A DNA stretch of 64,000 nt from NCBI GenBank assembly GCA_023662905.1, contig JAMPIJ010000006.1, forward strand, positions 426-64,425. The letters run 5' to 3'. Shown piece after piece: positions 2,646 through 10,526 of the stretch. Below the pieces are notes generated by a model. The model was not told the origin of the DNA, made no database searches, and saw only the letters and a list, made by a program, of their open reading frames with translations. The first letter of the stretch is position 1. The number at the start of each line of letters is the position of its first letter. A program made the position numbers and the translations under genes. The DNA comes from Fusobacterium sp. (lineage in GTDB: Bacteria > Cyanobacteriota > Vampirovibrionia > Gastranaerophilales > Gastranaerophilaceae).

Positions 2646-2969
2646 TTAAAACAGGGAGCTGACTAGTTTATATAAAATTTGTAATCGTTCTTTATCAAAT
2701 TTTAAAAACTCAACTTTTTGGATAATATAATTGTACATATCATCTTCTTTATTATCGCTAAATGTAAAAAGTTCATTTGGTGTAATTTCTAAAAGCTCAA
2801 TAATTTTTTCAAGGGTTTGAGCTGTCATAAACGCATTACCCGTTTCAATACTACTTAGAGTGTTAGTTGCTATGCCTATTTTTTCGGCAAATGATTCTTG
2901 GCTAAAGCCTTTGATTTTTCTAAGGTTTTGGATTCGTTTACCTAATTGTAGCTGGATGTTATTTTTCAT
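2646..2969 (-). CDS. XRE-family helix-turn-helix transcriptional repressor
   Basis: LGKRIQNLRKIKGFSQESFAEKIGIATNTLSSIETG is a canonical Cro/C1 HTH. The start at 2969 (MKNN) is preferred because of an upstream GAGGT RBS. Divergent from the 3088 operon. Confidence 0.85.
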   Translation of the reverse strand: MKNNIQLQLGKRIQNLRKIKGFSQESFAEKIGIATNTLSSIETGNAFMTAQTLEKIIELLEITPNELFTFSDNKEDDMYNYIIQKVEFLKFDKERLQILYKLVSSLF

Positions 2970-3025
2970 TAAACTAACCTCAAATATAATTATAAAGGGG
3001 AAGTAAAACCAATCTAACAATGTTT

Positions 3026-3060
3026 AACATGTTGACGATACATCTAAAACATGTTATAAT
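3026..3060 (+). promoter_or_regulatory. Sigma-70 consensus-like promoter with two palindromic AACATGTT boxes (putative XRE operators)
   Basis: TTGACG (3032-3037), a 17-nt spacer, then TATAAT (3055-3060). The palindrome AACATGTT occurs at 3026-3033 and 3048-3055, 22 bp apart, overlapping the -35 and -10. Confidence 0.6.
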
Positions 3061-3087
3061 TGATTTGTATAGAAAGGATTCTTAAAA

Positions 3088-3357
3088 ATGAACAACGAAT
3101 TAATCATTACGTTTAAAATATTGTTGGAACAATTCTCACGTGAACACGCTGTAAAGCTTTCAAGCTTATATCCATTTAGTGCAAACAATGAAACAATTGC
3201 CGTTATGGGGTTGCAATCTGAACTTCAAGAACTGGAACAGGAGCTAAGAGATTATATTACAAAAGAAATCCAGAATTTAACCTACGGCTGTACAATCTCT
3301 GAGTTCCATATAAATGATGAACCGACTAAAATGGTTATAGCTTTTGATATTAATTAG
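3088..3357 (+). CDS. Hypothetical small cytoplasmic protein (first gene of the five-gene cassette)
   Basis: 89 aa, RBS AAAGGA upstream, no signal peptide, no recognisable motif. Confidence 0.5.
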   Translation: MNNELIITFKILLEQFSREHAVKLSSLYPFSANNETIAVMGLQSELQELEQELRDYITKEIQNLTYGCTISEFHINDEPTKMVIAFDIN

Positions 3358-3380
3358 TAAAATAAAAAGTGAGGAATAAT

Positions 3381-3644
3381 ATGAAAAAATTTTTAGTTAT
3401 GCTTTTCTTAATGTTTGCATTTATGCCAAATTGCACATTTGCTTACTACAATTATCCAAGTGGTAATCCTATAATAAATGAACAAAGACAAGTAGCAAAC
3501 CAGCAACGAATGATGGAAATGCAACGGCAACAACTTAAACAACAAGAAGAAATGTTACGTATTCAAAGACAAAGAGAAAATGCAAGACTTGACGCACAAA
3601 TACGTAAAAATGGTTTTAATTCTGTTCCGATGAGCAGATATTAA
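3381..3644 (+). CDS. Small exported protein with Q/R-rich coiled coil
   Basis: ATG at 3381 is preceded by GAGGA. Signal peptide MKKFLVMLFLMFAFMPNCTFA, then QRQVANQQRMMEMQRQQLKQQEEMLRIQRQRENARL. Confidence 0.55.
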   Translation: MKKFLVMLFLMFAFMPNCTFAYYNYPSGNPIINEQRQVANQQRMMEMQRQQLKQQEEMLRIQRQRENARLDAQIRKNGFNSVPMSRY

Positions 3645-3662
3645 TATTATTTGAGGATATTC

Positions 3663-4064
3663 ATGAAAAAATTATTTACATTCTTTTGTTGTATATTAAT
3701 GCTTTCATTGTCTGCTAATGCCACTAACTGGGTTGAAGTTTCTAAAGGAACTTATATAGACACTGATAGTATCATTCAGGGTAAACAGATAACTATTTAT
3801 TGGGATAAAGAACTCAGGGTTGGAACATTCGAGGGTCTACTAAATAAAAAAATCAGTAAAATAATATCGAAAAATATGGTTTATTGTGGTAGCAGGCTAG
3901 TTAAAATGTTGGAATCCTATGTGTACGATGAGCAAGAAAACCTTATCCGCTCATACACATTCTATGATATCCCCAATAAGCACAGTATTGTTCCTGATAG
4001 TGTTGGAGAAACAGCATTTAACTTTGTTTGCCAATATGGTAACACTAACTTCAATTTAAAATGA
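3663..4064 (+). CDS. Small exported protein, hypothetical
   Basis: ATG at 3663 is preceded by GAGGA. Signal peptide MKKLFTFFCCILMLSLSANA. The mature part is beta-rich in composition with two Cys. Confidence 0.55.
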   Translation: MKKLFTFFCCILMLSLSANATNWVEVSKGTYIDTDSIIQGKQITIYWDKELRVGTFEGLLNKKISKIISKNMVYCGSRLVKMLESYVYDEQENLIRSYTFYDIPNKHSIVPDSVGETAFNFVCQYGNTNFNLK

Positions 4065-4075
4065 AAGGATAACTT

Positions 4076-4960
4076 ATGAATGATTCATTTGATGTAATTC
4101 AGGATACGAATATAACGTTTGACGATGTTGGCGGAATGGAAGAATTAAAAGAAGAAATTCAGCTAAATATTATTTATCCTTTTAAAAATCCCGATTTATA
4201 TATTCAGTATGGCAAAAAAGCCGGCGGTGGAATTTTAATGTACGGTCCACCGGGGTGCGGCAAGACGTATATCGCAAAAGCTACCGCGAATGAATGCGAG
4301 GCAACATTTATCAACATTTCGCTTGTGGATGTCTTGGACATGTATGTCGGGGAGTCTGAAAGAAAACTTCACGAGATATTTAATCTTGCACGTCGAAAAG
4401 CTCCCGCCGTTATTTTTATAGATGAAATAGACGCACTTGGCAACGACCGAATGAAAACAGGCACAAATGTTCAGGCTAGAACTTTAGTCAACCAGTTTTT
4501 AACAGAACTTGACGGAGTTGCTAGTAATAATCATCAAATAATGATACTTGGTTCTACAAATGTTCCTTGGTTCGTAGATACAGCACTTAAGCGACCTGGA
4601 CGTTTCGACAAAACTTTATTTGTTCCGCCACCTGAAATTAAAGCAAGAGAAGAAATTTTTAAATTAAATCTTGTCGGGAAACCTATTGCACAAATAGATT
4701 ATGAAAGATTAGCACGTGAAACCGAAGAGTTTTCACCGGCGGACATTGTCGGTGTTTGCAGTGTTGCTATTGATAATATTATTCGCAAAGCGATAAAGAC
4801 AGGGCAAAAAGATTTGATTACAACAGAGGCTCTATTACAAGCGATAAGTGAGGTTAAGCCGTCTACTATTGAATGGTTTGAAACCGCCAAGAATTATGTC
4901 AAATACAGCAACCAAAGTGGTCACTATGACGATGTTATGCACTATCTAAACAGAAAGTAG
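4076..4960 (+). CDS. Single-domain classic-clade AAA+ ATPase (Cdc48/FtsH/Vps4-like module)
   Basis: Walker A GPPGCGKTY, Walker B VIFIDEIDAL, SRH-type STNVPWFVDTALKRPGRFD. Only about 25 aa precede the ATPase core. Confidence 0.85.
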   Translation: MNDSFDVIQDTNITFDDVGGMEELKEEIQLNIIYPFKNPDLYIQYGKKAGGGILMYGPPGCGKTYIAKATANECEATFINISLVDVLDMYVGESERKLHEIFNLARRKAPAVIFIDEIDALGNDRMKTGTNVQARTLVNQFLTELDGVASNNHQIMILGSTNVPWFVDTALKRPGRFDKTLFVPPPEIKAREEIFKLNLVGKPIAQIDYERLARETEEFSPADIVGVCSVAIDNIIRKAIKTGQKDLITTEALLQAISEVKPSTIEWFETAKNYVKYSNQSGHYDDVMHYLNRK

Positions 4961-4963
4961 TTT

Positions 4964-5830
4964 ATGGTTGATATTCAAAAAACATATAAAAGAGCTTTAA
5001 CAGCTTTAAAGTTACGCAAATATGAGTTTGCAATTTCGCAGGCGAAAGAAATTCTTAGCCAAAACCCTAATATTAGTGGGGCGTATGCAATATTAGCCCA
5101 AGCTTATTATGGTTTGAACAATTATGTTGAGGCTGAATCCTGTATAAAGCAAGCTTTAAAAGGCAACCCGACGAATGTAGATTATTTGTGCTGGTATTGT
5201 GCGATTTTAAATGCAGAAGAACAGTATGAAAAAGCCTTAAGTGTTTCCGATGAGGCACTTACAATAGAGCCTACAGACACAACTGTAATGTATTGGCGAG
5301 GCTTGGCATTGCATAGATTGGGTAAATTAGAACGAGCAGAAGATGTAACTAAATATTTGTTAAACAAAGAGCCTAATGATGATAGCAATCACCAGCTTTT
5401 GGCTAAAATTTACGCTGAGAAACAACAAATAAATGAAGCGTCATTAGAATATGAAAAAGCATTAGAGTTAAATCCCAATAATGCCGTTACATACAATAAT
5501 TATGCTCTTATGAAAATTGATAATGAAGGAGTCTATGAAGATGAATCCATTCAATTATTAAAAGAATCTTTACGCTTAAATCCCGAAGATAAAATTGTCC
5601 AAAATAATTTGAAATTTGCTTTAAAAAAGAAAAAAATACGAAAGATAACTTTAAAAATAATATGCCTAATCATTATTCCAACATTTTTAATAGGAATTGT
5701 GGCAATTATAGCGTTGGGTATTCACTGTTTTAAGCATTACCCTGAGATATTTAATCTCTTTATATCTCTCTGTTGCGCTATAGGTATTTTGTATAACTAT
5801 AAGAATGATAAAGCAAAAAGTAATAAGTAA
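4964..5830 (+). CDS. TPR-repeat protein with C-terminal transmembrane anchor
   Basis: About five TPR-like 34-aa repeats (A-x3-Y/ALxxNP patterns). C-terminal hydrophobic segments LKIICLIIIPTFLIGIVAIIALGI and LFISLCCAIGILY. Separated by 3 nt from the AAA+ gene. Confidence 0.75.
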   Translation: MVDIQKTYKRALTALKLRKYEFAISQAKEILSQNPNISGAYAILAQAYYGLNNYVEAESCIKQALKGNPTNVDYLCWYCAILNAEEQYEKALSVSDEALTIEPTDTTVMYWRGLALHRLGKLERAEDVTKYLLNKEPNDDSNHQLLAKIYAEKQQINEASLEYEKALELNPNNAVTYNNYALMKIDNEGVYEDESIQLLKESLRLNPEDKIVQNNLKFALKKKKIRKITLKIICLIIIPTFLIGIVAIIALGIHCFKHYPEIFNLFISLCCAIGILYNYKNDKAKSNK

Positions 5831-5926
5831 TCTACGATAAAAAATCTATAATAAATTATTAATTTTTTGTTTATTTTTTGTAAGTTTGAACAAAAATACT
5901 CTATTCTATAAATAGGGAGAATTGCA

Positions 5927-6493
5927 ATGGAAGAAAAAATGATTCAAATTTTAAAAAAGCAAGTAGAGTTATTGGATGAGATACAAACCGTATCAGAGTT
6001 AAGCGACTGGAAAGAAAAAACAAAAATTTTTGTTTGTCGTATATATCAAGAAAATTCTCCTCAGTATAAACAATTTTTAAACATCAGAGCCTATCCAAAT
6101 ATATACACAATAGATACAAAACCAAATGTGCCCAAAGCTGTATTTAATGCAAAAAACATTTTAAATGGTTTTATTGAAGATATTGAAAATTTTGGATTGC
6201 CTAATAATCAAGCCCAAAAAGAAATTGTTTCTGTAAGAACTCCACACATAAATATTGAAAATAAACCTGTATTCACTCAATCTCAAACACAACAACAAAC
6301 TCAAAATACTGAAGATATTATCAAAGACGAACTTCCACCTGCAAGAATGAGAGAAATCGAAAAAGTTCTTAAAGCTAATGAACCTCACGAAACGAAACTA
6401 CAAAAGGTTGGTGATATACTACAAAAGGTTGGGATTGGCGTTGTTTCTTCCACTTTAGCTAAAATCATTACTTCATCAATGGGTGTTTTATAG
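5927..6493 (+). CDS. Hypothetical protein with hydrophobic/amphipathic C-terminus
   Basis: 188 aa, GGGAG RBS, C-terminal VGIGVVSSTLAKIITSSMGVL. No recognised family. Confidence 0.45.
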   Translation: MEEKMIQILKKQVELLDEIQTVSELSDWKEKTKIFVCRIYQENSPQYKQFLNIRAYPNIYTIDTKPNVPKAVFNAKNILNGFIEDIENFGLPNNQAQKEIVSVRTPHINIENKPVFTQSQTQQQTQNTEDIIKDELPPARMREIEKVLKANEPHETKLQKVGDILQKVGIGVVSSTLAKIITSSMGVL

Positions 6494-6495
6494 AC

Positions 6496-6837
6496 ATGTA
6501 TCAAAATTATAATTACAATCAAGCATTCTTATATCCTAAGCAGCCAACTTCTGCTCGTGAAGTTAGAGAAATGGCTAAACAAAGGAATCCAATTATTGAA
6601 ACAGACAAAAATATTGAAAAATGCCTTGTTGAAGGCAAATATCAAACCCAATTATTGAACGACACACAAAAAATTATTAATGAAAACGCTGAAATAGTAA
6701 AACAATTATCGCTTCAAATAAAATCAATAGAAGATTCCTCTAATAAGCAATATAAAACAGCTTTAATAATATCAATAATTACAGGATTATTTGCCGCAGG
6801 TTCTTTTGTATTAGCTCTAATACAAGTTTATATGTAA
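6496..6837 (+). CDS. Hypothetical tail-anchored membrane protein
   Basis: 113 aa, 2-nt gap from the previous ORF, a single C-terminal TM ALIISIITGLFAAGSFVLALIQVYM. Confidence 0.45.
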   Translation: MYQNYNYNQAFLYPKQPTSAREVREMAKQRNPIIETDKNIEKCLVEGKYQTQLLNDTQKIINENAEIVKQLSLQIKSIEDSSNKQYKTALIISIITGLFAAGSFVLALIQVYM

Positions 6838-6953
6838 AAGTTAAGAATTATTTTGTTAAAAATTTTAAGAAAACATATAATCTTTCTTGCCGTTTTATAT
6901 TAAATTTGTAATAATAGACTTATGAATTTAATCTTAAAAAGAGGAAAGAAATA

Positions 6954-8114
6954 TTGGTTCCTAAGTATGATGAAAAAAAAGTTTTACGTAGATTAGAAGA
7001 AATACAAGAAGTCCATGAAACTATTATAAATTCTGAACCTACTGATAAATTTAATATTTTATCATTACTTGCCTATATGTTATGGCAATATCCTAATACT
7101 AGAAATAGCGATATTACTCTAGCTCTTGAATTTTATAAAAAATTTTACCCTGAAATAGTTAAAGAGTCTTTAATAAAATTTGAAGACTTTTTCAAAATAC
7201 CTAAAATGTATGATATTCAACGAGCGAGAGCAAAAATCCAAAATACGGAAGGACTATTCCCTGCCAAAGAAAGTGTTATTCAAAAAAGGATTAAGAAAGA
7301 ACAAGAATATAGATTATATTTTAAAAATGAAAATACAGAGCCATTAACGAATCCCTCTGATTATTATATATATTTTGATGAGAGTGGAAAGACCGACAAG
7401 TATTTTATACTTGCAGGAATCTTGATTAATAGTGAAATTAGCAATAAATATTTTAGTGACAAACTTAATATAATAAAAACAAGACTGAATAAAAAATATA
7501 ATCAAAATATCAAAGAATTAAAATTTACTTCAATTGATAAGAAAAATATAAATTTCCATAAAGAGTTTATTACTAATCTATTTGAGGAAGATGTATTACC
7601 AACATTTGTTTCTATTATTATAGAAAATAAAGGTTTGAAACAATCTTCACAAAAAAAGAAAACAGAAAATTTATTAAGAATAATTTTACTAGATAGCATA
7701 ACATCTGTTATAGTACGGACAACTTGCTGTTCTTCATTTGGCAATACAAAAGCAAGTTTAAATATCATACTAGATAAAGATGGAGCCGGCTACGATACAT
7801 TAGAACTTGAAAACTTCAAACAGGATTTAATTTCATCAATAAACAAACAATTCAAATATTTTGTTAGCCTAGATAGTTTTGGTTATAATGATTCAAAAGA
7901 AAATATATTAATTCAGCTGGCAGATTTGTATGCAAGTTCCTTAAATAATATTTTCTCAGATATACCCGAAACCTCTGAAAATGCAAAATGTAAAAAACAA
8001 TTTGCCCAATTATTAATTGAACTAATTGGTTTAAAGTCATTAGAAGATAAAAAGGCGCCAAAGAAAAATAAAGTTAGATTCCTTAATAAATTTGTTTCAC
8101 ACAACATGTATTAA
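6954..8114 (+). CDS. DUF3800-family protein with about 130-aa N-terminal extension
   Basis: YYIYFDESGK near residue 138 and IQLADLYASSL near the C-terminus resemble the two DUF3800 signature motifs as I recall them. TTG start follows AAGAGGAAAG. Confidence 0.55.
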   Translation: MVPKYDEKKVLRRLEEIQEVHETIINSEPTDKFNILSLLAYMLWQYPNTRNSDITLALEFYKKFYPEIVKESLIKFEDFFKIPKMYDIQRARAKIQNTEGLFPAKESVIQKRIKKEQEYRLYFKNENTEPLTNPSDYYIYFDESGKTDKYFILAGILINSEISNKYFSDKLNIIKTRLNKKYNQNIKELKFTSIDKKNINFHKEFITNLFEEDVLPTFVSIIIENKGLKQSSQKKKTENLLRIILLDSITSVIVRTTCCSSFGNTKASLNIILDKDGAGYDTLELENFKQDLISSINKQFKYFVSLDSFGYNDSKENILIQLADLYASSLNNIFSDIPETSENAKCKKQFAQLLIELIGLKSLEDKKAPKKNKVRFLNKFVSHNMY

Positions 8115-8189
8115 ATATACTTTACAAACTTACCTATATGTTGAATTGTAAAAATAATATTTACAAAACAGAATATTTATATAGCATTT

Positions 8190-8220
8190 TTGTACATTTT
8201 TCACGAATTCGTGATATAAT
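8190..8220 (+). promoter_or_regulatory. Extended -10 promoter overlapped by a perfect 14-bp palindrome
   Basis: TTGTAC (8190-8195), TGaTATAAT (8212-8220), and palindrome TCACGAATTCGTGA (8201-8214) between them. It lies 20 nt upstream of the ATPase gene start. Confidence 0.5.
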
Positions 8221-8240
8221 TTTATAGAAAGGGTAATAAA

Positions 8241-9581
8241 ATGTTAATAGAATTTAGCGTAGAAAATTATAAATCGATAAAAGAAAGAATTACTTTAAGC
8301 CTACAAGCCGCAAAAGATACAAAACTGGCTAAAAATATAACAAAAATCAATTTACCTCAAATAGATAATCAAAAAACAACCCAAAGGATTTTAAAAACAT
8401 CTGTTATATATGGCGCAAATGCCTCAGGGAAATCAAATATTTTAAAAGCAATGGACTGTATAAAAAAAATTATTCGTACATCCCATAATTACATAACAAA
8501 TCAACAATTCCCTATTGATAATTTCCGCTTAGATTTAAGCTACACATCAAAACCAACAATGTTTGAATTTATTTTTATTCAACACGGTATAAAATACGCA
8601 TATCAAGTTTCACTAACAAAAGAAAAAGTTTTAGAAGAAAATTTATATTATTGGCCAAACGGTAGACAAGTTAAAATATTTGAACGTGATGAGGAAAAGA
8701 TAATCTTAGGAAATTCCTTTAAAGGTAAAAACCAAGAAGATGATTTAAGAAATAAAATCTACGCTCAGGACACCGCAGAAAACACATTATTCTTGTCTAG
8801 AGCCAACAATGTTAATATTGTAGAAATGAAAGAAGCATTCAATTGGTTTGCGACTAAACTTGTAATTATTTACCAACAAATTGGGATTGGTAATGCGACA
8901 TCTAATATGATAGCAGACAACATACTGAATGAACAAGAAGTTTTGAACTGTTTAAAAATTGCAGACCCACAAATCGCCGATTTTAATCTAGTCAAAAAAG
9001 AACTGGAGGATGTGGAAAATCATCCGATGAATTTGTTTATAAAACAAGTTATTCTACCACAGATAGCAAAAAAAGAAAATATAAGAGTAGAAAATCTTGG
9101 AAAAATTTTAGGATTAAAAATTGATGAAAAAACACGAAGATATGCTATCACAGAAACAGGTGAAAGAATATTAGTAGATTTTGACCTTTCTGAAGAATCT
9201 GATGGAACACAACGTTATTATGGTTTGCTTGGGCCAATTTTAGCCTGCCTAAAAACAGGATGTACCCTATTATTTGATGAAATGGAATTAAGATTGCACC
9301 CTCTGTTATCAAAAGGACTTATTGACCTATTCACATCAGAATTAAATTCCCAAAATGCTCAATTAATAATTACATCACATGATGTCAATTTACTTGATTA
9401 TAAAGGTCTTTTTAGACGAGATCAAATTTGGTTTACAGAAAAAAATGAGGATAGTTCTACCGAGTTATATTCACTTGATGATTTTACCGGCATTCGAGAC
9501 AGCATGATACAATCTAAAAATTATTTAAAAGGTAAATTTGGAGCAATTCCGGATTTGAACTGGGAGAATTTGAATGATTAA
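8241..9581 (+). CDS. ABC/SMC-like AAA ATPase (AAA_15/AAA_21 type), AbiLi-like
   Basis: N-terminal MLIEFSVENYKSIKE..., Walker A GANASGKSN, Walker B LLFDEMELRLHP, and ITSHD near the C-terminus. Confidence 0.8.
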   Translation: MLIEFSVENYKSIKERITLSLQAAKDTKLAKNITKINLPQIDNQKTTQRILKTSVIYGANASGKSNILKAMDCIKKIIRTSHNYITNQQFPIDNFRLDLSYTSKPTMFEFIFIQHGIKYAYQVSLTKEKVLEENLYYWPNGRQVKIFERDEEKIILGNSFKGKNQEDDLRNKIYAQDTAENTLFLSRANNVNIVEMKEAFNWFATKLVIIYQQIGIGNATSNMIADNILNEQEVLNCLKIADPQIADFNLVKKELEDVENHPMNLFIKQVILPQIAKKENIRVENLGKILGLKIDEKTRRYAITETGERILVDFDLSEESDGTQRYYGLLGPILACLKTGCTLLFDEMELRLHPLLSKGLIDLFTSELNSQNAQLIITSHDVNLLDYKGLFRRDQIWFTEKNEDSSTELYSLDDFTGIRDSMIQSKNYLKGKFGAIPDLNWENLND

Positions 9582-10218
9582 AAAACAAATTCGAGAGACA
9601 AAAAGAAGTAGAAACCTACGCCCAATTAAACAAAATATTTATATCTCTTGCGAGGGTGATGCAGAAGAAGCATATCTCAATGGTTTGAAAAGACGTTATT
9701 CAAGAGTAGCGACAATCAAAATAAGTAATAGTAGCCCAAACACCGCGGCTCCCAATGTAGTAAAAAACCTAAAGAAAAAATTCAAAAATGAGTATAACAG
9801 AGAAGATTTAAAATATTGTATTTTTGATTGTGATAACAATACACAGGCACAATTAGAAGAGGCTAGACGACTTGCTAATATCGAACATGCAGAAATTATA
9901 TTTTCCAACCCTTGTTTTGAGATATGGCTTTTATGGCATTATGAAAATAATTTAGCATTTCAAAGTTCACGTGACGCGCTAAAAAGACGTATTGAAACAT
10001 ATATAAGACCTGAATATTGGACCTATAAAGAAATACCTACGTTATACGATTTAGTACGCAATAATACAAATCAAGCAGTCTTAAATTACGAACATAGAAA
10101 AACTGAACTCTTGCAAGACAGTGTTGCAGCTTATTCTAGAGAAAGTAATCCTTATTCAAACTTTTATGACTTAATAACTAAACTAATAAGCCTTGAATCT
10201 GGTAATCCTATAAATTAA
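9574..10218 (+). CDS. RloB-like (Toprim-related) protein, AbiLii-like
   Basis: IYISCEGDAEEAY, IFDCD and SNPCFEIWLLWHY match the RloB domain pattern. An 8-nt overlap with the ATPase gene implies translational coupling. Confidence 0.75.
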   Translation: MIKKQIRETKRSRNLRPIKQNIYISCEGDAEEAYLNGLKRRYSRVATIKISNSSPNTAAPNVVKNLKKKFKNEYNREDLKYCIFDCDNNTQAQLEEARRLANIEHAEIIFSNPCFEIWLLWHYENNLAFQSSRDALKRRIETYIRPEYWTYKEIPTLYDLVRNNTNQAVLNYEHRKTELLQDSVAAYSRESNPYSNFYDLITKLISLESGNPIN

Positions 10219-10416
10219 ATTATAGATAAGTATAATCTTATTCCTATAGGTAAAAATTTTATAGGGGGTGTTGTTGAGCATAGCCCCCCTATGGGGTGTT
10301 TTAAATACATATTTATGCAATCTACTCTTACTGTATTTTATAAATTGCTATAGTTTTTTATTTTTCACTCCGACATTTTTACGACAATCTATATTTTCAG
10401 CTTTGAAATTTGCATT

Positions 10417-10438
10417 AAAAAAGCGGGTTAAAACCCGC
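10417..10438 (-). terminator. Terminator downstream of tRNA-Arg
   Basis: On the minus strand, the GCGGGTTTTAACCCGC hairpin is followed by TTTTTT. Confidence 0.6.
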
Positions 10439-10452
10439 TTAATTATTAGATT

Positions 10453-10526
<74 letters not shown>

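Follow-up and report, generated by a model that had tools for sequence, protein, structure and literature searches.

What does a compact run of five genes behind one promoter encode on a mobile island, and do its five members belong to one system? The question is raised by positions 3088 to 5830 of a 64,000-nucleotide (nt) stretch of bacterial DNA, hereafter the window (contig JAMPIJ010000006.1 of assembly GCA_023662905.1, deposited as Fusobacterium sp. and placed in the Gastranaerophilaceae in the GTDB lineage), for which a sequence-only reading had proposed an undescribed cassette of three small proteins, an AAA+ ATPase and a membrane-anchored tetratricopeptide repeat (TPR) protein, controlled by an XRE-type regulator. 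Our analysis supports a narrower unit: the core is the ATPase gene followed by the membrane-anchored TPR gene, and the window carries a reduced, mobile version of a known, uncharacterised pair. The genes and control region are listed below, with protein lengths in amino acids (aa).

2646..2969, minus strand: XRE/Cro-C1-type helix-turn-helix regulator, divergent from the operon and part of a swappable module
3016..3060, plus strand: promoter with overlapping AACATGTT palindromic repeats, the presumed XRE operators
3032-3060, plus strand: the promoter itself, TTGACG, 17 nt, TG-n-TATAAT (score 11/12)
3088..3357, plus strand: 89-aa protein without a signal peptide; an orphan, outside the conserved module
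3381..3644, plus strand: 87-aa exported Q/R-rich protein ending in ...MSRY-COOH, of the aromatic C-terminus class
3663..4064, plus strand: 133-aa exported protein resembling Adhesin_E (Protein E; Pfam PF16747)
4076..4960, plus strand: 294-aa single-domain classical AAA+ ATPase (Pfam AAA, 4e-41, and AAA_lid_3)
4964..5830, plus strand: 288-aa protein with TPRs and a membrane hairpin, starting 3 nt past the ATPase stop

Close relatives of the ATPase number about 30, are 66-100% identical to it and measure about 295 aa. Gene context was compared in 12 close loci, namely the window and the contexts of 11 homologues, among them contig L001, which encodes an identical ATPase. In all 12, a TPR gene of 264-305 aa with a hydrophobic C-terminal hairpin starts 1-20 nt past the ATPase gene; the adjacency was recorded in the window and at L001, L082, L084-87, L088, L090-93, L094-96, L097-100, L181-183, L184, L185 and L186. 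The genes upstream are far less constant. A divergent XRE gene with 3-5 small open reading frames (ORFs) stands there in seven variants (window, L001, L082, L088, L090/91, L097 and L181/183), four variants carry no XRE gene (L084-87, L094-96, L185 and L186), and the L184 contig starts at the ATPase gene, so that its upstream side falls outside the contig. Moreover, the set of small ORFs changes at almost every close locus.

The clearest case is L001. Over 4055-10441, a stretch that opens 21 nt ahead of the ATPase start, its DNA is 98.9% identical to the window; across 2650-4055 (breakpoints L001:146 and L001:2400) it shows no similarity, and just past the XRE gene's 3' end the identity is again about 90%. 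In place of the missing segment, L001 holds another XRE gene, whose product is 30% identical to that of the window, and five different small ORFs. By this comparison, the XRE gene and the small ORFs form an exchangeable block, with the ATPase/TPR pair as the constant unit. Consequently, the proposal that the five genes make up one conserved system does not hold: the 89-aa protein is an orphan, the small ORFs vary, the XRE block is swapped and four contexts are without it.

More distant relatives strengthen the link between the two core proteins. The next-best homologues of the ATPase (55-60% identical, about 440 aa; from Clostridium, Ktedonobacteria and many metagenomes) have an N-terminal TPR-like domain fused to the AAA module, and the reference-genome relatives that are 44-60% identical are mostly such TPR-AAA fusions. 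When the 55-aa tail of the ATPase was used as the sole query, 349 representatives of clusters built at 50% identity were recovered; the full-length ones mostly measure 430-470 aa and carry the tail within a few residues of the C-terminus. Furthermore, a 405-565-aa partner with N-terminal TPRs and 1-6 transmembrane (TM) helices lies near the fusion gene in 13 of the 19 loci L002-L020 and abuts it in 11, with the pairing seen in Bacteroidota, Verrucomicrobiota, Acidobacteriota, Campylobacterota, Planctomycetota and Clostridium. A multi-TM TPR protein abuts the fusion at L003, L004, L006-L009, L011, L012, L014-L016 and L018; at L002 the TPR protein has one TM helix and lies upstream, and two paralogues flank the fusion in the Planctomycetota locus L018. 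A functional pairing of the ATPase with the TPR/TM protein is thus borne out by near-abutting genes in every close context and in most distant ones, and the idea of a split AAA+/TPR machine gains from the natural fusion of TPR and AAA in the nearest outgroup proteins. Since adjacency is conserved and natural fusions exist, the two proteins probably work together.

The pairing had, however, been recorded before, so the label "undescribed" is only partly deserved. An uncharacterised dyad of a "Vps4-like AAA+" gene followed by a gene for TPRs and TM segment(s) has been reported from several phyla, i.e., Bacteroidetes, Verrucomicrobia and Planctomycetes, with ACB74714.1/Oter_1429 of Opitutus terrae as an example and a proposal limited to "membrane-proximal action" (Ravi et al., 2024; mSystems, PMC11237479). 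As in that dyad, the AAA+ gene of the window directly adjoins a gene encoding TPRs followed by TM helices, across a 3-nt gap, and the listed phyla hold relatives of the window ATPase that are 44-54% identical and have exactly the dyad architecture. The family of the window therefore matches the published dyad in architecture and in phyla, the two grounds for the link to ACB74714.1. Among their differences, the dyad ATPase has an N-terminal MIT/TPR domain, which the window ATPase lacks and its 50-60% identical relatives possess, and the dyad partner has six TM helices, whereas the hydrophobic helices number two in that of the window, one or two in the 12 close partners and 3-6 in distant ones. 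The mobile island, the XRE control, the aromatic exported proteins and the adjoining defence genes are features of the window not in that paper (PMC11237479). Full-text searches of the literature yielded no other paper on the AAA+/TPR-TM pairing, and the pairing is not described in Kaur et al. (2020; PMC7159879).

The 294-aa ATPase contains all three motifs first read from its translation (GPPGCGKTY, VIFIDEIDAL and KRPGRFD) and is, as had been claimed, little more than an AAA module, without an N-terminal domain and beginning about 50 residues before Walker A. Its pore loop reads YVGESE, and its family-specific C-terminal tail is KPSTIEWFETAKNYVKYSNQSGHYDDVMHY. Residues K63, D116, E117, N162, R173 and R176 are invariant in the family alignments, as are E266, W267, Y277, N279 and Y284 of the tail; T264 and A271 vary nowhere in alignment A1 and reach a conservation of 90% or more in A2, and the tail consensus in A1 and A2 is KP[ST]TxEW..A.N...Y.N..G.YD....Y. 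Because the family shows no variation in Walker A, Walker B, sensor 1 or either arginine finger, its members are predicted to be catalytically competent. The best sequence match in the PDB is p97 D2 (205 bits), and the AlphaFold2 (AF2) model, with a predicted local distance difference test score (pLDDT) of 83.7, retrieved p97/VCP chains, including D2-only entries, as the top Foldseek matches (TMq about 0.8). To judge by sequence and predicted structure, no characterised protein is closer than p97/VCP (Cdc48) in its D2 domain.

This likeness extends to both arginine fingers and to an acidic/aromatic C-terminal tail, but the window protein is bacterial, has one AAA domain and is partnered by a membrane-anchored TPR protein; membership in the Cdc48/p97/VAT family was rejected, as the protein is a single AAA module without the N domain and the tandem D1/D2 (CDC48, 224 bits against a cutoff of 803). 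The "Vps4-like" label was likewise set aside, the scores and the second region of homology motif (RPGRFD) being nearer to p97-D2, PAN and FtsH, and a Vps4/CdvC system with ESCRT-III does not fit a protein without an MIT domain and with no Snf7 gene nearby (CdvC, 180 bits against an NCBIfam cutoff of 650). FtsH was dismissed because the window protein has neither TM helices at its N-terminus nor an M41 protease domain at its C-terminus (FtsH_fam, 206 bits against a cutoff of 600). In PEX1/PEX6-PEX15/26-PEX5, Msp1/ATAD1 and FtsH, as predicted for the window pair, a classical AAA+ ring is held at the membrane by a TM element or a tail-anchored partner, and in the peroxisomal system the recognition of a C-terminal tripeptide falls to a TPR receptor. 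Homology to these systems nevertheless ends at the AAA and TPR folds and the window proteins have no protease domain, so that the parallel is a functional analogy.

Three further candidates were considered. EccA of type VII secretion, the analogy offered by the sequence-only reading, likewise combines TPRs and AAA+ for handling secreted proteins, but its AAA+ is CbbX-type and the candidate clients in the window carry Sec signal peptides; the NCBIfam EccA model gives the window ATPase 29 bits, far short of its cutoff of 467, and the island has no Ecc or Esx genes. For the Iet anti-phage system, IetA is the best PADLOC match of the window ATPase (1e-31), but its score is far below those of generic PAN (229 bits) and Cdc48 (224 bits), IteA reaches 94 bits against an NCBIfam cutoff of 510, and no subtilase/peptidase S8 gene occurs in the island. 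As to CBASS Cap6 (TRIP13)/HORMA, the TRIP13 match (3e-17) is weaker than generic AAA and no HORMA or cyclase gene was found.

For the 288-aa partner, which matches Pfam TPR families, the two C-terminal hydrophobic helices previously noted were recovered, while the estimate of about five TPRs gives way to six: the AF2 model (pLDDT 90.6) has 12 helices forming six TPRs over residues 4-205, followed by long helices at 210-258 and 260-287 that hold both hydrophobic segments. By the positive-inside rule, flanking lysines and arginines mark the cytoplasmic side, and those beside the hydrophobic segments place the TPR array in the cytoplasm, as far as this rule can be trusted. One or two C-terminal hydrophobic segments are kept in all 12 close partners. 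Foldseek returned only generic TPR superhelices for the model (OGT, PEX5 and Tom70 among them), no Pfam domain was found in the TM region of the TPR partners, and a PADLOC match to PDC-M71B is at noise level. Across the close loci mean identity is 35% for the TPR partner vs 74% for the ATPase; this fast divergence was set aside as evidence of an arms race, being weak because TPR scaffolds are generally little constrained.

The description of the operon stands. All five ORFs lie on the plus strand, separated by the 3-23 nt gaps originally given (successively 23, 18, 11 and 3 nt), and a ribosome-binding site of the GAGG/AAGGA type stands before every start. The strong operator-bearing promoter is real in the sense that a near-consensus extended -10 promoter occupies 3032-3060 with repeats over both hexamers, and it ranks first among the 27 sites scored in the region; promoter-like sites overall show no excess (27 found against 24.9 expected in shuffled sequence). 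The repeats TAACATGTT (3025-3033) and AACATGTTA (3048-3056) are 100% complementary, are spaced by 22 nt and cover the -35 and -10 hexamers, and the AACATGTT repeats are presumed from their sequence and position to be the operators of the XRE protein. The mechanical ORF of the XRE gene reaches back to a TTG at 3020, and the true start is likely the ATG at 2969, giving 107 aa. Its product matches Pfam HTH_19 (6e-13) and HTH_3 (1e-9), the PADLOC families HTH_VI and Control_protein and, under the cutoff, an NCBIfam RstR-type repressor (1e-12). Together with the HTH_19 match, profile searches of the operon products thus returned PF16747, AAA with AAA_lid_3, and TPR families.

Regarding the three small proteins, the 89-aa product has no family match in Pfam, PADLOC, NCBIfam or PHROG and occurs in two copies among 5.8 billion proteins, that of the window and one 67% identical at the L082 locus. 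The 87-aa protein (91 aa if started at the GTG at 3369 instead of the ATG) and the 133-aa protein (137 aa if started at the TTG at 3651 instead of the ATG) have signal peptides that we read from the sequence as MKKFLVMLFLMFAFMPNCTFA|YY and MKKLFTFFCCILMLSLSANA|TN, respectively, and the mature part of the former is 18% Q, 14% R and 11% N. The PF16747 match of the 133-aa protein is slightly above threshold (1.5e-5, 25.7 bits against a cutoff of 23.7). By BLAST, its homologues occur in the XRE-gated loci L082, L001 and L088, and proteins of L097 and L181/183 have an N-terminal motif like its own, judged by eye from the sequence alone; the L183 copy has no Pfam family. The Adhesin_E-like type is not present in L090/91 nor in the XRE-less contexts, and such an exported protein is thus found in most XRE-gated variants and nowhere else.

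The 87-aa protein also gave a weak match to an Rz-like spanin (PHROG 312, E = 0.0045), the PHROGs otherwise returning only unknown-function or generic families for the operon products. This match raises the possibility that the upstream genes (holin-, spanin- and endolysin-like) serve a satellite-like element as its lysis or life-cycle cassette, which the pair would assist, and small two-TM proteins in L001, L088 and L091 and an SLT lytic transglycosylase adjoining the L181 operon could be read in the same way. We regard such a cassette as highly improbable, since the spanin match is near noise, the window has no endolysin and no structural or packaging genes, close relatives are missing from viral contigs, and the pair is also found without any lysis-like genes.

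A more consistent property of the 87-aa protein is its C-terminus. We defined, post hoc, a motif of a hydrophobic N-terminus and a C-terminal [R/N/G/H][Y/F], and counted as near the pair any gene lying up to 3.5 kb away on the upstream side or 1.5 kb on the downstream side. The motif occurs in 13 of 90 near genes and in none of 126 farther ones (Fisher P about 7e-6, for related loci and a post hoc motif), and all 11 complete loci have at least one small exported protein ending in [R/N/G/H]-[Y/F]-COOH. In the rest of the 64-kb window, no further ORF combines a hydrophobic N-terminus with such an end. These proteins, most of which end in ...RY, all have a high content of Q, N, Y or G, and they fall into at least six families without relation to one another:

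Q-rich coiled coils, among them the 87-aa protein of the window (3381-3644), which ends in MSRY
proteins with the signature ANQxGVPYEEYxC
proteins with the signature DTYVRGYTRRDGTYV
an N/W-rich 99-aa protein that stays adjacent to the pair though its side and strand differ between L094 and L185
at L084 and L186, which lack XRE, a six-fold YD-like repeat protein with the C-terminus FYHF or FYRF
a PDZ protein ending in NRRY

Their positions at the other loci are as follows:

L001:612-956 and L001:1727-1990
L088:5395-5976 and L088:7615-7908
L091:1912-2556
L094:4844-5143 (minus strand)
L097:5759-6778
L183:3477-3770
L185:3973-4272
L084:5963-6391 (minus strand)
L186:6513-6926 (minus strand)

The earlier suggestion that exported small proteins go with the pair was therefore right for the 87-aa type, and these linked exported proteins with an aromatic C-terminus are a new feature relative to the published pair.

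Taken together, we propose that the pair is a two-protein, membrane-tethered AAA+ machine that handles the co-encoded exported proteins and is carried as island cargo for envelope conflict, a reading to which we give an even chance of being correct. The 294-aa ATPase would be a catalytically intact subunit of a p97-D2-like unfoldase ring without a substrate-binding domain of its own, and the TPR protein, through its six TPRs and TM hairpin, would bring it to the inner face of the cytoplasmic membrane. The ATPase may dock on the TPRs, perhaps through its conserved acidic/aromatic tail. For such docking there are analogies: the p97 tail binds PUB/PUL domains, and the EEVD of Hsp70/90 binds TPRs. 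Classical AAA+ rings (p97, PAN, FtsH, Msp1 and PEX1/6) thread or unfold polypeptides brought by adaptors, which is why a membrane-proximal unfoldase or extractase is the activity that we infer. Hexamer formation and ATPase-TPR docking are presumed, as are the clients assigned to the pair and a possible role in defence. The pair is a reduced mobile form of the cross-phylum family, in which the ATPase usually has an extra N-terminal TPR/MIT-like domain and the partner 3-6 TM helices, and it travels with at least one small Sec-exported, Q/N/Y/G-rich, aromatic-ended protein, in the window the 87-aa protein. A transcription factor would govern it, XRE in the window and WYL/WCX elsewhere, and the complex would hold, unfold or extract aggregation-prone, envelope-bound proteins at the membrane, serving the island in phage or competitor exclusion or in abortive killing. 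Within this proposal, that the aromatic-ended exported proteins are clients of the pair is conceivable and on balance doubtful; a defence or exclusion role of the module, suggested by XRE/WYL control and the defence-island setting, is a tentative assignment that falls a little short of an even chance.

Several observations weigh against this proposal. A limitation of the sample is that the 12 close loci are related islands and not independent, and the C-terminal motif was not fixed in advance. The TPR partners of the window and L001 are 98.6% identical although their small proteins are different, so the TPR protein does not co-vary with its supposed clients, and contact between them would be possible only before export, given that the clients have Sec signal peptides and the TPR protein and ATPase are cytoplasmic. 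The faster divergence of the TPR partner may just reflect low constraint on TPR scaffolds. Loci of the wider family have no exported proteins with an aromatic C-terminus, and in Flavobacteriaceae the pair sits among the housekeeping genes parA, parB, dapB, lepB and wbqC; the ancestral role, it follows, depends neither on aromatic proteins nor on conflict. Moreover, PADLOC has no model for the pair beyond generic AAA matches (IetA and TRIP13), and no published phenotype for it was found in the full-text literature.

The chromosomal placement leads to another explanation, by which the pair performs general membrane-protein or secretory quality control, like an FtsH without its protease or an Msp1-like protein, and is a hitch-hiker on islands, the small ORFs and conflict being irrelevant. 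The gene order in Flavobacteriaceae chromosomes is parA-parB-(ORF)-dapB-lepB-[TPR-AAA]-[TPR-TM]-wbqC. There the pair (L004:5020-9098, L011 and L014) lies directly past lepB (signal peptidase I), fused to DUF5684, a placement beside a secretory-pathway gene that may or may not matter. This position after lepB and among parAB and dapB speaks for quality control, as do the occurrence of the pairing across many phyla and the restriction of the published proposal to "membrane-proximal action" (Ravi et al., 2024). It is hard to reconcile, however, with the minimal clade, which in the examined contexts is confined to defence islands and to elements that bear an integrase or are Tn7-like, answers to an XRE or WYL regulator and is invariably tied to one class of exported proteins; quality control as the sole role is accordingly quite unlikely in our estimation.

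The defence setting itself can be explained without the small ORFs. The XRE-less loci (L084-87, L094-96, L185 and L186) place the pair in defence islands beside WYL/WCX regulators, and the neighbours include a GajB-like UvrD/PD-(D/E)XK helicase, HNH type IV restriction-like proteins, Mrr, a PDC-S37/Hhe helicase and, inside a Tn7-like element, AbiEi/AbiEii; HipA is also among the neighbours of mobile-clade pairs. On these grounds the pair alone might be anti-phage, with the TPR protein sensing a phage protein, the AAA+ engaged in response, and the TM hairpin or its remodelling damaging the membrane, while the small ORFs are unrelated cargo. The much faster divergence of the TPR partner and the AbiL, DUF3800 and PDC-S35-like genes of the window island would agree with this account. 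It has to contend, however, with the small aromatic-ended exported protein that the XRE-less loci too retain beside the pair, with the lack of a fitting PADLOC family and with the chromosomal relatives among housekeeping genes. Close relatives in viral contigs or plasmids are also missing: viral contigs hold no ATPase relative closer than 42% identity, mostly giant-virus Cdc48-like genes, and plasmids gave generic TPR matches only, with no close relatives of the pair. We consider the pair-alone account unlikely, to a lesser degree than quality control.

The proposal of a tethered machine handling exported proteins can also be extended, in a bolder form that we find improbable, to a three-part envelope-conflict system of a transcription factor, tagged amyloid-like exported proteins and the TPR/ATPase machine. 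Here, XRE or WYL would release the expression of small Sec-exported, Q/N/Y-rich, amyloid-like proteins, and the [R/N/G/H]-[Y/F]-COOH end would be a tag read in the cytoplasm by the TPR receptor, as the peroxisomal targeting signal PTS1 is by PEX5. The same end resembles the C-terminal Y-x-F signal of outer-membrane proteins, and alternatively it might be a periplasmic tag mimicking the Y-x-F signal recognised by BAM and by DegS/DegP-type PDZ proteases. The p97-like ATPase would unfold, feed or recycle the tagged proteins at the membrane, and the envelope would be remodelled or sabotaged, whereby phage would be excluded or the infected cell killed.

As for the island around the operon, inside which the window begins, its mobile nature and defence neighbourhood, claimed from the outset, were corroborated by an integrase, low GC (about 0.30 against 0.40 for the rest of the window), a tRNA-Arg gene, AbiL and DUF3800. 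Its other features are the following:

24-998: tyrosine integrase
after the integrase: Xis/AlpA-like ORF (read from the translation)
between the Xis/AlpA-like ORF and the XRE gene: two small ORFs
5927-6493: 188-aa ORF, PDC-S35-like (PADLOC, 6e-8)
between the 188-aa ORF and the DUF3800 gene: 113-aa ORF
6954-8114: DUF3800 gene, PDC-M04A-like (PADLOC, 2e-6)
8241-10218: AbiLi (7e-90) and an RloB-type partner
10453-10526: tRNA-Arg(TCT)

The downstream cargo looks like stacked defence genes; at L097 the DUF3800 gene is broken into fragments of 126 and 141 aa. Integration at tRNA-Arg is supported by a copy of the tRNA end upstream of the L097 integrase, a 56-nt partial tRNA-Arg (L097:2138-2193) that is 84% identical to window 10465-10520 and is likely the att repeat bounding this island type; its counterpart in the window would fall before coordinate 1. 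A second integrase beside the island in L097 and L088 suggests tandem islands at one hotspot. In the window, the stretch 2320-2650, which leads from the genes on the int/xis side to the convergent XRE gene, folds unusually strongly on the plus strand (z = -6.0, equalled by 0 of 100 shuffles) and holds two terminator-like hairpins (2352-2395 and 2397-2420) and, within otherwise AT-rich sequence, a C-rich patch at about 2498-2540; its part 2507-2650 is conserved in L001. It has no Rfam match, Rfam having returned tRNA only. Beyond the island, window 12000-64000 is chromosome of about 40% GC with prepilin-type and ExbD/TolR-like proteins recognised on inspection. NCBI names proteins identical to those of the island "Fusobacterium sp." (a metagenome-assembled genome); 40% GC seems high for Fusobacterium, which leaves this host assignment open to some doubt.

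In brief, p97-like ATPases of the single-ring kind that have a membrane-anchored TPR partner are widespread in bacteria and uncharacterised. The version in the window is compact (about 3 kb), mobile and transcriptionally gated, has candidate clients as neighbours and offers an entry point to the whole family. If the aromatic C-terminus is indeed a functional tag, it would add a principle of targeting or signalling that is new for bacterial envelopes, and if the pair protects against phage, the classical-AAA+/TPR architecture would join the defence repertoire.

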